Of a stretch of 64,000 nucleotides of DNA, positions 42,126 to 53,012 are shown piece after piece (the stretch's first letter is position 1; each line of letters starts with the position of its first letter). The position numbers were made by a program, and so were the translations under genes. Below the pieces are notes generated by a model. It saw nothing but the letters and a program-made list of their open reading frames with translations. It did not search any database and was not told the DNA's origin. This stretch comes from a phage, in sequence record PZ154895.1, one strand, 5' to 3'.

Positions 42126-42198
42126 TGGGAATTAGCCAAGTTGGTAAGGCACTGGATTTTGATTCCAGGATGCAAAGGTTCGAGTCCTTTATTCCCAG
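42126..42198 (+). tRNA. tRNA-Gln (anticodon UUG)
   Basis: manual cloverleaf: 7-bp acceptor tgggaat/attccca, anticodon loop ttTTGat, T-arm GGTTCGAGTCC. Confidence 0.75.
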
Positions 42199-42199
42199 C

Positions 42200-42286
42200 G
42201 CGAGAATGGTCAAATTGGTAAAGGCACAGCACTTAAAATGCTGCGGAATGATTTCCTTGTGGGTTCGAGTCCCACTTCTCGCACCA
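42200..42286 (+). tRNA. tRNA-Leu (anticodon UAA), type II
   Basis: acceptor gcgagaa/ttctcgc + CCA, anticodon loop ctTAAaa, long variable arm. Confidence 0.75.
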
Positions 42287-42291
42287 AATTT

Positions 42292-42365
<74 letters not shown>

Positions 42366-42411
42366 ATTTATGACTCGTCGTGAGACGCTCAGTTCTTTAT
42401 TAGGGACTGAT

Positions 42412-43020
42412 ATGCATTTTTATCTTTATAAAATAACAAATAAAATTAATAATAAAATTTATATTGGTGTGCATTCTACCGAAAATTTAGATGATGGATA
42501 TATGGGTTCTGGTAAATTATTAAAAAGAGCCCAAGACAAGTATGGTATAGAAAATTTTTCTAAAGAAATATTAGAGTATTTTGATGATAAAGAATCTATG
42601 CTTGAAGCCGAGAAAAATATTGTTACAGAAGAGTTTTTAAATAGACCAGATGTGTATAATTTAAAACTTGGCGGTGAAGGTGGATGGGACCACATAAATA
42701 ATTATCCTATGACAGATCAGCAACGCGAATTAATTTCATTGGGTGTTAAAAAGGCACATTCTAACGGAAAATTAAAAGGATGGTCTTCAAATGGATTAAT
42801 GAAGAATGGCTTTGCTGGTAAAACTCATTCTCAAGAAGCTAAACGTAAAATAGCAAAAGCAAACGAAGCAAAAGTTTCTGCGGATGAAAGAAAAAGAAGA
42901 ATAGAAATTTCTAAATTATATGATTTTTCTAAGCGTGGTGAATTATCTAAATATGCTAAGCATATTGGCGTAAGTCATACTCAAGCAAAAAGAATTCTAA
43001 ATCAAATTAACAATATATAA
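42412..43020 (+). CDS. segB: GIY-YIG homing endonuclease SegB (alternative start 42370)
   Basis: GIY-YIG motif HFYLYKITNKINNKIYIGVH; embedded in the tRNA cluster as in T4. Confidence 0.75.
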   Translation: MHFYLYKITNKINNKIYIGVHSTENLDDGYMGSGKLLKRAQDKYGIENFSKEILEYFDDKESMLEAEKNIVTEEFLNRPDVYNLKLGGEGGWDHINNYPMTDQQRELISLGVKKAHSNGKLKGWSSNGLMKNGFAGKTHSQEAKRKIAKANEAKVSADERKRRIEISKLYDFSKRGELSKYAKHIGVSHTQAKRILNQINNI

Positions 43021-43026
43021 ATATTT

Positions 43027-43116
43027 GGAGGCGTGGCAGAGTGGTTTAATGCACCGGTCTTGAAAACCGGCAGTCGCTCCGGCGACTCATAGGTTCAAAT
43101 CCTATCGCCTCCGCCA
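43027..43116 (+). tRNA. tRNA-Ser (anticodon UGA), type II
   Basis: acceptor ggaggcg/cgcctcc + CCA, anticodon loop ctTGAaa, long variable arm. Confidence 0.7.
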
Positions 43117-43121
43117 GTTTT

Positions 43122-43197
43122 GCTGATTTAGCTCAGTAGGTAGAGCAACTCACTTGTAATGAGAAGGTCGGCGGTTCGATCCCGTCAATCAGCACCA
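43122..43197 (+). tRNA. tRNA-Thr (anticodon UGU)
   Basis: acceptor gctgatt/aatcagc + CCA, anticodon loop ctTGTaa, T-arm GGTTCGATCC. Confidence 0.7.
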
Positions 43198-43198
43198 A

Positions 43199-43273
43199 GG
43201 CCCTGTAGCTGGAAGGTTCAAGCAAGCGACTCATAATCGCCAGATGGTGGTTCAATTCCACCCAGGGCCACCA
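43199..43273 (+). tRNA. tRNA with CAU anticodon (Ile-lysidine type or Met)
   Basis: acceptor ggccctg/cagggcc + CCA, anticodon loop ctCATaa; T4 carries an Ile tRNA of this type. Confidence 0.6.
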
Positions 43274-43282
43274 AATTAATTT

Positions 43283-43369
43283 GGGGAGTTATCCCGTAGA
43301 GGTAGCGGTGTGGACTGTAAATTCATTGTCATTGCGACTCGGGTGGTTCGACTCCATCACTCCCCACCA
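43283..43369 (+). tRNA. tRNA-Tyr (anticodon GUA), type II
   Basis: acceptor ggggagt/actcccc + CCA, anticodon loop ctGTAaa, long variable arm; manual fold, less certain. Confidence 0.5.
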
Positions 43370-43373
43370 ATTT

Positions 43374-43448
43374 GGATGTGTAGCTCAATGGCAGAGCGAT
43401 CGCCTGTTAAGCGATTGGTTATAGGTTCGAATCCTATCACGTCCGCCA
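43374..43448 (+). tRNA. tRNA-Asn (anticodon GUU)
   Basis: acceptor ggatgtg/cacgtcc + CCA, perfect anticodon stem atcgc/gcgat with loop ctGTTaa. Confidence 0.6.
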
Positions 43449-43452
43449 AATC

Positions 43453-43528
43453 CGAGGCATAGCTCAGAAGGAAGAGCAAGGACCTTCTAAGTCCTAGGTC
43501 GTAGGTTCGATCCCTACTGCCTCGACCA
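43453..43528 (+). tRNA. tRNA-Arg (anticodon UCU)
   Basis: acceptor cgaggca/tgcctcg + CCA, anticodon stem aggac/gtcct with loop ctTCTaa, T-arm GGTTCGATCC. Confidence 0.7.
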
Positions 43529-49871: not shown

Positions 49872-50345
49872 ATGAAAACATATCAAGAATTTATCACTGA
49901 AGCAGCTATTAATTCTCAAATTATTGCTGAATCTTTTACTGATCTTTTGAAATTTAAAAAAGGACAGAAAATTACTGCTGTATTAGATGATGGTACAGAA
50001 GTTGAGATGGATGTACAAGGATATAATTATGCAGTAGATGGAAAACTGTATAATAAATCTCATGCTAAATTTGATTCATTTGACGACTTTGTTAATACAG
50101 TTGAAGATGAAAAAACTCGTAGATCCATTGCAACTGGCGATGCTAAGGTTCTTATGGCACACGGTCATGAACGTATTCGCGCTAAACAGAATAAAATGGG
50201 CGAAGATAATTTCGCATTAGTTGGTTATCAATCTGGTAAGCAAACTTATGGCTATCAGCGTACTGCTACCATGTATAATAAAAATGGTAAAATCGCTTTC
50301 GTGAATAGCAAAGGCTCTATTCAGTACGTCAAATCATTCAAATAA
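49872..50345 (+). CDS. internal-protein-like CTS-bearing protein
   Basis: 157 aa; N-terminus MKTYQEFITE|AAINSQIIAE|S closely matches the canonical T4 IP leader MKTYQEFIAE. Confidence 0.55.
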   Translation: MKTYQEFITEAAINSQIIAESFTDLLKFKKGQKITAVLDDGTEVEMDVQGYNYAVDGKLYNKSHAKFDSFDDFVNTVEDEKTRRSIATGDAKVLMAHGHERIRAKQNKMGEDNFALVGYQSGKQTYGYQRTATMYNKNGKIAFVNSKGSIQYVKSFK

Positions 50346-50498
50346 GCAAATAAGAAATATGGGAACAAGCTGGACCTCATGATTCTATGAGGGATTCCCG
50401 CCAACCTGTAATAAGGTCGAGCCCAAGTGCGGTAATGGGTAAATACAGAAATGGACAATTCATGCGCCATGGAATGGCCCAAATTTAGAGAGAATAAA

Positions 50499-51038
50499 AT
50501 GAGAACATTTTTAACTGGTCCTTATCTATCCCTGATGAATGCTTTTACACACCATTCTGATGCTAGAGTAGAAGAAATTTGTAAAAACGATTATATCCCA
50601 CCATTTGAAGACTTACTTAAGCAGTATTGCACACTTCGTTTAGATGGTGGCAGACAATCCGGTAAATCAACTGCTGTGACTAACTTTGCTGCTAATTGGC
50701 TGTATGATGGTGGAACAGTTATTGTTCTTTCTAATACTTCAGCTTACGCTAAAATTTCTGCGGGCCACATTAAAAAAGAATTTTCTCGTTATTCTGGCGA
50801 TGATATTCGATTCCGCTTATTTACCGATTCTGTCCGTAGTTTTATTGGCAATAAAGGAAGCAAGTTCAGAGGTTTATCGCTTTCTCGAATTTTGTATATA
50901 ATCGATGAGCCTGTTAAATCTCCTGATATGGATAAAATTTACGATATTCATATTGAAACTGTGCAACACTGCTGCAATAGTAAATGCTGTACTGGTGGTA
51001 TTACTCGTCCACAGTTTTTCGTAATCGGAATGCAATGA
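50499..51038 (+). CDS. small P-loop NTPase with C-terminal Cys cluster
   Basis: Walker A DGGRQSGKST, Walker B ILYIIDEP, C-terminal CCNSKCC; start chosen at MRTFL (alternative 50451). Confidence 0.55.
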   Translation: MRTFLTGPYLSLMNAFTHHSDARVEEICKNDYIPPFEDLLKQYCTLRLDGGRQSGKSTAVTNFAANWLYDGGTVIVLSNTSAYAKISAGHIKKEFSRYSGDDIRFRLFTDSVRSFIGNKGSKFRGLSLSRILYIIDEPVKSPDMDKIYDIHIETVQHCCNSKCCTGGITRPQFFVIGMQ

Positions 51039-51364
51039 TGACAGATACGCAACTTTTCGAATATCTTTATTTTTCGCCAAAAACTATTAAAAATAAATTG
51101 GTGAATCATTTTGAAATTTTGGCAAATAACAACGTCTTGAGCGAATTTTATCCTAAGCAATACAAATTACAAAAAGGCGTATTCAAAGGATGCAGAGTTT
51201 TGTGCACTGCTCCTAATGCAAAGTTAATGAATAAAATTCCATATTTTACCATGGAATTTATTGATGGACCTTTTAAAGGACTAATTACCCAAAGTTTAAT
51301 GGCATATGATTCTGAGCCATTTTTAATTAAAGAGCAATCTTGGATAAATTTATTTTCTAATTGA
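51035..51364 (+). CDS. hypothetical protein
   Basis: about 109 aa from MMTDTQLF, overlaps upstream stop. Confidence 0.45.
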   Translation: MMTDTQLFEYLYFSPKTIKNKLVNHFEILANNNVLSEFYPKQYKLQKGVFKGCRVLCTAPNAKLMNKIPYFTMEFIDGPFKGLITQSLMAYDSEPFLIKEQSWINLFSN

Positions 51365-51370
51365 GGTTAT

Positions 51371-51733
51371 ATGAAAGCATATCAAATTCTTGAAGGCACA
51401 CATAAAGGTACTATTTATTTTGAAGACGGTATTCAAGCACGAATTATTGTCTCTAAAACTTTTAAAGAGGACTCTTTTGTAGACCCGGAAATTTTCTACG
51501 GTTTGCATGCCCGTGAAATTGAAATTGAAACACAACCTACAGTTAAAATTGAAGGTGGTCAACACTTGAACGTTAACGTTCTGCGTCGCGAAACTCTGGA
51601 AGATGCAGTTAAGCATCCGGAAAAATATCCGCAGCTGACCATCCGTGTATCAGGTTATGCAGTTCGCTTTAACTCTCTGACTCCGGAACAGCAGCGCGAC
51701 GTTATTGCTCGTACCTTTACTGAGAGTTTGTAA
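51371..51733 (+). CDS. GrcA/YfiD-like autonomous glycyl radical cofactor
   Basis: 120 aa; C-terminal half [55 protein letters not shown] carries the glycyl-radical RVSGY motif, near-identical to enterobacterial GrcA as recalled. Confidence 0.85.
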
Positions 51734-51954
51734 TGGCAAAGATAATTATTGAAGGTTCTAAAGATGTGCTAAATGCTTTCGCCGAATGGTTTAGTAATTC
51801 AGGCGAGCAGCAATTTAATGAAGCGTGGACCATGGGTGATATTGATGGAATTTATCCTACGACAGAAATTTCTGTTCAAGGATATGGCATTCATGAACCT
51901 ATTCGTTTAGTTGAATATGATTTATGTACTGGTGAGGAAGTAAAATATGATTGA
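51733..51954 (+). CDS. hypothetical small protein
   Basis: 73-aa ORF, ATGG overlap with upstream stop. Confidence 0.4.
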   Translation: MAKIIIEGSKDVLNAFAEWFSNSGEQQFNEAWTMGDIDGIYPTTEISVQGYGIHEPIRLVEYDLCTGEEVKYD

Positions 51955-52213
51955 AGATATTAAGGGTTATAAGCCACATACTGAAGAGAAAATCGGTAAA
52001 GTGAATGCTATCAAAGACGCTGAAGTTCGTTTAGGACTTATCTTTGATGCTTTATATGATGAATTCTGGGAAGCACTGGATAATTGTGAAGACTGTGAAT
52101 TCGCAAAGAATTATGCTGAAAGCCTCGATCAGTTAACTATTGCTAAAACTAAACTCAAAGAAGTCAGTATGTGGGCTTGTCGCGCAGTGTTTCAACCAGA
52201 GGAAAAATATTAA
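51947..52213 (+). CDS. hypothetical small acidic helical protein
   Basis: 88-aa ORF; vs.3-vs.8 region of T4. Confidence 0.4.
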
Positions 52214-52491
52214 TGGCTCAATTAAGCGCAGGGTTTGGTTATGAGTATTATACTGCCCCTCGTCGTGTATCTGTTGCTCCTAAGAAAATTCAAAGTCTTG
52301 ATGACTTCCAGGAAGTAGTCCGTAAAGCTTTCCAGGACTATGCACGTTATCTTAAAGAAGATTCACAGGACTGTCTCGAAGAAGATGAAATTGCTTACTA
52401 TGAGCAGCGTCTTGAACAGCTCAAAAACCTACATGAGGTTCGTGCAGAAGTTTCAAAGTCTATGAATAAATTGATTAGATTTAAAGAATAA
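52213..52491 (+). CDS. hypothetical small protein
   Basis: 92 aa from MAQLSAGF with GAGGAA SD. Confidence 0.4.
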
Positions 52492-52525
52492 CTGTTTACT
52501 TTTCCTCTTGACTGTGGTATAATTT
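52488..52525 (+). promoter_or_regulatory. T4-type early promoter upstream of regB
   Basis: -35 GTTTAC 52494-52499, -10 TGGTATAAT. Confidence 0.7.
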
Positions 52526-52550
52526 TTCTATCAGTTAAGAGGAGAATAAC

Positions 52551-53012
52551 ATGACTATCAACACAGAAGTTTTTATCCGTCGAAATAAGCTCCGTCGTCA
52601 CTTTGAGTCGGAGTTTCGTCAAATTAACAATGAGATTCGTGAGGCATCAAAAGCAGCAGGGGTCTCATCGTTTCATCTAAAATATTCTCAGCATCTTCTT
52701 GATCGTGCAATTCAACGGGAGATTGATGAGACATATGTTTTTGAATTATTCCATAAAATAAAAGACCATGTTTTAGAAGTTAATGAATTCCTGAGTATGC
52801 CTCCGCGTCCTGACATTGACGAGGATTTTATTGATGGGGTTGAATATCGTCCTGGGCGTTTAGAAATCACAGATGGAAATCTTTGGCTTGGATTTACAGT
52901 TTGTAAACCTAATGCGAAGTTCAAAGACCCGTCGCTTCAATGCAGGATGGCAATTATTAACAGTCGTCGTTTACCAGGAAAGGCTTCTAAAGCAGTAATT
53001 AAAACTCAATGA
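52551..53012 (+). CDS. regB: RegB site-specific endoribonuclease
   Basis: 153 aa, exactly the T4 RegB size, own early promoter, position between denV and tk. Confidence 0.65.
   Translation: MTINTEVFIRRNKLRRHFESEFRQINNEIREASKAAGVSSFHLKYSQHLLDRAIQREIDETYVFELFHKIKDHVLEVNEFLSMPPRPDIDEDFIDGVEYRPGRLEITDGNLWLGFTVCKPNAKFKDPSLQCRMAIINSRRLPGKASKAVIKTQ

Follow-up and report, generated by a model that had tools for sequence, protein, structure and literature searches.

The gene vs.6 of this T4-like phage appears to be a mosaic, in which codons ~61-117 of an old phage grcA lineage have been overwritten in frame by grcA of the host, Escherichia. The sequence analysed, here called the window, is a 64-kb stretch of phage DNA (record PZ154895.1). 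The combination of function, mosaic origin and recurrence set out under Function and proposed mechanism is the best explanation of the data, and we put its probability at roughly 0.85. The gene and its function were already known, and the annotation itself adds nothing new, but the DNA-level pattern is of some value. It may also be new, since no published report of a DNA-level mosaic in vs.6 was found in the literature on the gene or on host-phage exchange, although older papers may mention one. The features discussed below are as follows.

51364..51367, + strand, putative ribosome-binding site GAGG of vs.6, read from the sequence, 3 nt 5' of the ATG
51371..51733, + strand, vs.6 / Y06I coding sequence (GrcA/YfiD homologue), from the ORF, Pfam, phrog_1209, PDB 6owr and the T4 and ime09 annotation
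51371..51550, + strand, codons 1-60, putative phage-lineage 5' half, from 47% nt identity to E. coli, composition and N-half comparisons
51551..51721, + strand, codons 61-117, putative host-derived tract, matching grcA of E. coli K-12 at 168/171 nt
51653..51655, + strand, GGT codon of Gly95, predicted glycyl-radical residue in RVSGYAV, from the HMMER alignment to PflB
51722..51733, + strand, terminal codons GAG AGT TTG and the stop, in synonymous states of phage type that recur in distant T4-like phages

Identity and position of the gene

The first-pass annotation had placed a GrcA/YfiD-like gene at 51371-51733, and these coordinates proved exact. The ORF runs from an ATG start to a TAA stop and encodes 120 aa. 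Its product matches Pfam Gly_radical (PF01228; residues 60-101, E=2.2e-18), and the best PDB match is E. coli YfiD/GrcA (6OWR, E=5e-42), followed by PflB; phrog_1209 covers the full length of the protein (residues 1-120, E=5e-63). Residues 58-120 align with PflB 697-759 (HMMER, E=5e-26; 49/63 identical, counted by eye), and by alignment Gly95 corresponds to Gly102 of GrcA and to Gly734 of PflB. The protein has the hallmarks of the GrcA/YfiD family (TIGR04365, IPR011140), being a small stand-alone protein of ~14 kDa with a C-terminal Gly_radical domain and an RVSGYAV loop. Its score against the NCBIfam GrcA equivalog model TIGR04365 is 154.6 bits, below the 170-bit cutoff (E. coli GrcA scores 234), and the match is restricted to profile positions 25-126. 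The low score is due to the diverged N-half, which alone gave no match in NCBIfam. As the first-pass annotation had stated, T4 carries the counterpart: at 98.3% aa identity (118/120) to T4 vs.6 (NP_049730), the window gene is the Tequatrovirus ortholog of vs.6 (Y06I), an already characterised gene with a known role.

Database labels for vs.6/grcA in phage records vary widely, and include "pyruvate formate-lyase", "2-ketobutyrate formate-lyase", "putative acetyltransferase-related protein", "ribonucleotide reductase subunit" and "formate acetyltransferase". The labels "pyruvate formate-lyase" and "ribonucleotide reductase subunit" are wrong for vs.6. RefSeq names the protein GrcA despite its score below the NCBIfam equivalog cutoff.

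The window is from a Tequatrovirus, and the 2.2 kb around vs.6 are 97-97.7% identical at the nt level to many T4-like (Tequatrovirus) genomes. The local gene order is denV, an internal-protein gene, vs.8, vs.7, vs.6, vs.5, vs.4, vs.3, regB, vs.1, vs and tk.4. The order is alike in ime09, and T4 matches it over the stretch fetched except that the internal-protein gene is absent there; the position of vs.6 between vs.7 and vs.5 in the denV-regB block is conserved in both. The TGA stop of vs.7 (51362-51364) abuts the GAGG of vs.6, the stop of vs.6 overlaps the ATG of vs.5 (TAATG), and vs.8-vs.7-vs.6-vs.5 form a tightly packed block that is probably co-transcribed. A promoter and terminator scan of 50300-52700 gave no promoter-like excess over shuffled expectation and no terminator-like site. 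The strongest sigma-70-like promoter match of the scanned region lies at 52495-52523 (+), just 5' of regB (TTTACT-17-TATAAT with an upstream TG, 10/12).

Mosaic structure of vs.6

The C-terminal ~60 residues, described in the first-pass annotation as near-identical to enterobacterial GrcA, are in fact identical to it: residues 61-120 of vs.6 equal residues 68-127 of E. coli K-12 GrcA at 60/60 positions, RVSGYAVRF included. At the DNA level, codons 61-121 match K-12 grcA at 177/183 nt with all six differences synonymous, whereas the 5' half matches at only 84/177 nt (47%) in a codon alignment, and the contrast between the halves is highly significant (Fisher p=1e-28). The pairwise alignments with E. 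coli GrcA and T4 Y06I that had been proposed as a check gave high identity in the 3' half, with the Gly motif kept. A maximum chi-square analysis placed the breakpoint at codon ~59, for a junction at ~59-61. Three sites within the tract separate the window from K-12, all synonymous and all C>T or C>A.

Composition changes at the same place. The 5' half has 33% GC and 20% GC3, in keeping with flanking genes at 21-32% GC3, whereas the 3' half has 48% GC and 42% GC3, close to the 45% GC3 of E. coli grcA. By its composition the tract stands out within the phage, in the top 1.2% of 180-nt windows. All complete E. coli genomes searched (5426/5426) match the 3' stretch of vs.6, which is also the only E. 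coli chromosomal megablast match within the 64-kb window, and the 171-nt tract of ime09 used alone as query returned the same number of E. coli matching places.

The 3' end of the tract lies just before the stop codon. Three of the six differences from E. coli sit in the last 9 coding nt (P=0.002), and the codon states found there (GAG, AGT, and TTG or CTA) are common to distant phages of the Jiaoda-, Slopek- and Pseudotevenvirus groups. These phage-type terminal codons appear to mark the 3' end of the converted tract, and no host sequence was found 3' of the vs.6 stop codon. A longer tract with another 5' breakpoint was considered for Mosigvirus, where BLAST aligns from nt 155, but the extension runs through scattered matches and a base-by-base alignment returned the same junction.

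A sharp breakpoint, synonymous identity on one side of it only, a compositional shift and a phylogenetic conflict between the halves all argue for a gene of mosaic origin. A chimeric assembly or host-DNA contamination, for which no supporting point was found, deserves practically no credence: the same in-frame mosaic occurs in ~640 independently sequenced phage genomes, T4 included, and each mosaic has private synonymous changes and phage-type terminal codons.

Donor and direction of transfer

The last 180 coding nt of the gene were compared with grcA from 81 bacterial species (80 besides E. coli). Identity was 96.7% to E. coli K-12 and 95.6% to Escherichia sp. MOD1; the next best match was Citrobacter amalonaticus at 89.4%, and the median over the 81 species was 83%. 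At third codon positions the window is 93% identical to E. coli and the phages are 93-97% identical to it, against a median of 58-60% to other species. The dS to E. coli over the 3' half is 0.15 for the window and 0.07 for T4, ime09 and RPN187, as compared with 0.40 between E. coli and C. amalonaticus and 1.1 between E. coli and Salmonella. In a neighbour-joining (NJ) tree, the tracts of Tequatrovirus and Mosigvirus group with the two Escherichia sequences in 195/200 bootstraps. By its aa identities the N-half of vs.6, unlike the 3' half, falls outside all sampled bacterial diversity.

Such high third-position identity and low dS indicate recent common ancestry with Escherichia grcA DNA. The first-pass annotation had offered recent host acquisition or strong constraint, and both apply, since the absence of any non-synonymous change shows that protein-level constraint is real. 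It is, however, very improbable that purifying selection for fit to PflB and PflA, perhaps with convergent codon usage, produced the similarity with no recent DNA transfer. Besides the lack of non-synonymous differences over 60 residues, this account can point to the same 60 aa in distant phages such as Cronobacter phage leB and in 13/81 of the sampled bacterial grcA genes. Yet leB encodes these residues with only 83% nt identity to E. coli (pS 0.67), so constraint alone is insufficient to account for the synonymous identity. For other enterobacteria that have these residues and a comparable codon bias, identity does not exceed 89-92%, the synonymous sites of the tract are near-identical as well, and the 5' half of the very same gene uses AT-rich phage codons.

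The donor was in all likelihood Escherichia and the direction host to phage. Acquisition of the 3' half of E. coli grcA from a T-even phage would be scarcely credible, as the one thing that points to it is the shared sequence itself. The GC and GC3 of the tract are host-like, which makes it an outlier in the phage and not in the host, and its presence in every E. coli genome searched also argues against a phage source. Measured against other bacteria, the two halves of grcA in E. coli have similar dS, so that descent of the host gene is vertical throughout, and E. coli lies among the other Enterobacteriaceae in the 3'-half tree. Moreover, the phage-private substitutions in the tract are mainly GC>AT (14:7).

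Some records in these searches carry odd labels. A 142-kb "Pseudomonas phage" (PV654520.1) has a vs.6 that is 99.2% identical to the window protein, and enterobacterial grcA occurs in a "Vagococcus sp." assembly and a 275-kb "Klebsiella plasmid" (L044 and L036). These may be mislabelled hosts, contamination or chromids.

Probable conversion of a resident phage gene

The N-terminal half was rightly described as diverged: it has 21-30% aa identity to 67 distinct bacterial GrcA N-halves, which is to be compared with 69-99% between the E. coli GrcA N-half and other bacterial N-halves. Among Tevenvirinae the vs.6 N-half is 70-98% identical, and it is 53-57% identical to those of Slopek- and Pseudotevenvirus. 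Only a profile-profile comparison revealed a relationship: hhalign of 30 phage with 67 bacterial GrcA N-halves gave a probability of 98.3% (E=2e-14, 27% identity over 59 columns), which points to remote homology of the phage N-half to that of GrcA. GrcA homologues are found in T4-like, T5-like and jumbo phages (1589 phage records), and vs.6 is one of eleven uncharacterised ORFs conserved in all T4-like genomes compared by Nolan et al. (PMC1524935). Because phage and bacterial N-halves are homologous and yet anciently diverged, the whole vs.6 gene would be an old grcA derivative.

The proposed host acquisition stands for codons ~61-117, which seem to have been replaced inside an older phage gene, but does not stand as capture of a whole gene. 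The tract is flanked on both sides by phage-lineage sequence, a signature of homologous replacement, and its 5' junction (EGGQH) is the point where phage/host DNA homology begins. A resident gene was most probably converted and no new gene captured.

Possible recurrence of conversion

The tracts of ime09, RPN187, L100 and L103 differ from K-12 at a single site, CGC>CGT at codon 73, and are 171/171 identical to grcA of many E. coli genomes. At most one mismatch to this ime09-type tract was found in 377 phage records, and a further 266 are 95-99% identical. Both E. coli alleles of codon 73, CGC and CGT, are found in phages, and among the phages examined the tract differs from E. coli at 0 to 7 positions.

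When ime09 (Tequatrovirus) is compared with RPN187 (Mosigvirus), the two have no mismatches over nt 172-357 of vs.6, as against 20 mismatches in the 5' half and ~30% divergence in vs.5, and in general the flanks of the tract diverge by 10-30% between these genera. At the rate of the 5' half, ~10 synonymous differences would be expected in the tract where none was observed (P=6e-5). Between the window and RPN187, 4 were observed and 8.6 expected (P=0.07), so that this tract is not significantly younger than its flanks; the window's own tract looks like a somewhat older one.

An island of identity that coincides with the host-homologous block suggests independent or repeated correction by the host, which it fits better than common descent. 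A single host-to-phage conversion in one T-even lineage, followed by descent or by phage-phage recombination with no ongoing host exchange, must be weighed against this. The 5' junction is identical in every Tequatrovirus and Mosigvirus sequence examined, the terminal codons are phage-type (non-E. coli) in 13/13 of them, and T-even phages recombine readily in co-infection. In some pairs the divergences of 5' half and tract are similar (14 vs 7 for window and moskry, 18 vs 14 for Killian and MM02). It is possible that one recent conversion with tract-limited phage-phage exchange, or recurrent C/T mutation at codon 73, gives a similar picture. A single event nevertheless seems rather unlikely to us, as it would have to accommodate an ime09/RPN187 island that matches the host-homologous tract between flanks 10-30% apart, several phage tracts with full identity to extant E. 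coli alleles, both host alleles of codon 73, and tracts of heterogeneous age.

We lean, with some reserve, towards repeated correction even in its strongest form. In that form the glycyl-radical module of phage grcA would be a hot-swappable cassette that stays matched to the current host through repeated homologous exchange, vs.6 codons 61-117 of T-even phages of E. coli being continually overwritten by host grcA during infection, and independent replacements at the EGGQH junction occurring in other genera, as with Krischvirus JSE and L127, the PflB-like module of L129 and the Klebsiella-type residues of Klebsiella phages. If so, the tract would be a natural reporter of recent host use and would give a direct measure of host-to-lytic-phage recombination, and a gene of a virulent, modified-DNA phage would be evolving in concert with a chromosomal gene of its host. 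A 116-kb record, EC.W14-2, with 100% tract identity, was considered as an independent conversion in a T5-like phage and set aside, since it is classified as Tequatrovirus.

The module in other phage genera

Krischvirus JSE (L010, 392-808) and L127 (IMGVR_UViG_2974573495_000001) match at 245/248 nt up to EGGQH and at 121/169 nt thereafter (p=1e-17), which looks like an independent exchange of the module at that junction. The best donor match for this module is 80% to Enterobacter grcA. In L129 (IMGVR_UViG_2706796082_000001, 163 kb), a T4-like phage, the grcA homologue has a PflB-like C-terminal module (NREMLLEAMEDPTKYPQ...KEQQRDVISRTFTEAM); the DNA of this module is closest to the 3' ends of pflB, not to grcA.

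Klebsiella phages of two genera (Jiaodavirus and Slopekvirus) have the Klebsiella/Salmonella-type residues LLDAVEH, where phages of E. coli, Citrobacter and Cronobacter have LEDAVKH, and Jiaodavirus nests in the LLDAVEH-type bacterial clade of the NJ tree. Host tracking was considered for the Klebsiella phages and set aside, because their DNA is just 83-91% identical to any of the 81 species, a sample that does not include K. pneumoniae grcA. Either these events are older or the donors lie outside the sample.

Two T4-like phages of E. coli have no converted tract, namely JSE and contig L113 (180.5 kb), which we take to be RB43. The longest exact runs shared with E. coli grcA are 11 nt in JSE, 17 nt in the Pseudotevenvirus phages leB and IME-CF2, and 26-38 nt in Jiaodavirus-type phages; these lengths are consistent with a homology requirement for conversion.

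Function and proposed mechanism

Both T4 Y06I and E. coli YfiD are reported to take up a radical from PFL activase and to restore PFL cleaved by O2 at Gly734, for Y06I in vitro (Wagner et al. 2001, as summarised in PMC8683613). Given its 98.3% identity to Y06I, the window copy is inferred to have the same PFL-repair activity. The first 60 residues of YfiD are disordered and help it to bind cleaved PFL, and residues 61-127 form the structured radical domain (PMC8683613). In the mechanism we propose, host PflA would install the radical on Gly95 of the vs.6 protein, and the C-terminal domain would dock into host PFL whose C-terminus has been cut by oxygen at Gly734, restoring its activity. This 14-kDa "spare part" would keep the production of acetyl-CoA, ATP and formate going in a micro-oxic infection. 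T4 infection shuts off transcription of the host and degrades its DNA, and so the phage would supply its own spare part. Formate is the reductant for the class III ribonucleotide reductase, which T4 encodes. A module identical to that of the host would guarantee fit to host PflB and PflA.

A different function is unlikely, though less so than the alternatives to host-to-phage transfer. The protein might titrate PflA, modulate intact PFL through its N-half, or serve the phage's own glycyl-radical ribonucleotide reductase. The N-half is conserved among phages yet differs from that of the host, and it is the N-half of YfiD that governs binding to cleaved PFL (PMC8683613). A role in nucleotide metabolism was speculated upon by Nolan et al. 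2006 (PMC1524935), and in Aeromonas phage PX29 the gene adjoins nrdG. The C-terminal module, however, resembles PflB in 49 of 63 residues by eye, none of the 33 PDB sequences matched at E<=0.001 is an NrdD chain, and Wagner 2001, as cited in PMC8683613, reported that T4 Y06I restores PFL cut by O2 in vitro.

As to the origin of the gene, codons 1-60 would derive from the old phage-specific grcA lineage of T4-like, T5-like and jumbo phages. Codons ~61-117 would be E. coli grcA DNA, brought in from the host with the reading frame intact through homologous replacement (gene conversion). The limits of the tract coincide with the start (EGGQH) and the end (near the stop) of phage/host homology. The conversion would be recent, and in Tequatrovirus and Mosigvirus it has probably happened more than once or been continually renewed, the host-identical tract itself being a substrate for further exchange. 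The window copy would have gained its three synonymous C>T/A changes after conversion.

Comparison with known systems

T4 vs.6 shares with the window the order vs.8-vs.7-vs.6-vs.5-vs.4-vs.3-regB and an E. coli-like 3' tract, but differs by two residues (T54P and R73H in T4), and the window tract has three private synonymous changes and CGC at codon 73, not CGT/CAT. E. coli GrcA/YfiD (P68066; 6OWR) is likewise a small stand-alone protein with an RVSGYAV loop and the identical C-terminal 60 residues; the phage protein is shorter by 7 residues and has an N-half with only ~27% identity across the profile alignment, and its gene lies in an early-gene block of a virulent phage, whereas host grcA lies next to ung. 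PflB has in its residues 697-759 the piece that the spare part would replace, with 49/63 residues identical (by eye) and Gly734 as the equivalent glycine, but it is a 760-aa enzyme as against a 120-aa phage protein, and the DNA of the tract matches grcA and not pflB.

The closest known evolutionary parallel is the host-phage intragenic recombination in the photosynthesis genes psbA and psbD of cyanophages, as described by Sullivan et al. 2006 (PMC1484495). These too are host-like auxiliary metabolic genes of T4-like phages built as mosaics of phage and host segments. The case of vs.6 differs in its setting, an E. coli host and a T-even phage, and in having a single 171-nt block with up to 100% host identity that coincides with a structural module.

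Cleanly bounded, in frame and common to two phage genera whose flanks are 10-30% apart, the vs.6 tract would be a compact, well-controlled and experimentally testable case of gene conversion from host to lytic phage, in the best-studied pair of phage and host. It would also mean that a phage auxiliary protein is matched to host machinery by copying the host, and not by selection alone. Phage leB adds a caution, as protein identity alone can mislead when the same residues occur without recent transfer.

Other features of the window

Two genes 3' of vs.6, vs.4 (51947-52213, +) matches Pfam Acb2_Tad1_hairpin (E=3e-19). Its product is the anti-CBASS sponge Acb2, a label already used in one GenBank record. 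The product of vs.8 (50451-51038, +) has a weak P-loop-type likeness to the terminase large subunit (phrog_2, E=3.7e-6, residues 60-165), and in phage EO1 a "large terminase subunit" is annotated under the same 2.2-kb stretch as vs.8.

A cluster of nine tRNA genes is located at 42126-43528 (+), for Gln, Leu, Gly, Ser, Thr, Met/CAT, Tyr, Asn and Arg. The tRNA set of T4 includes Pro and Ile and is not known to include Tyr and Asn, so the set of the window seems to differ from that of T4. For the Tyr-Asn part (43278-43434), matches of 83-84.5% identity occur in tRNA clusters of 258 plasmid records from E. coli, the plasmids being 97-110 kb in size among the matches listed.
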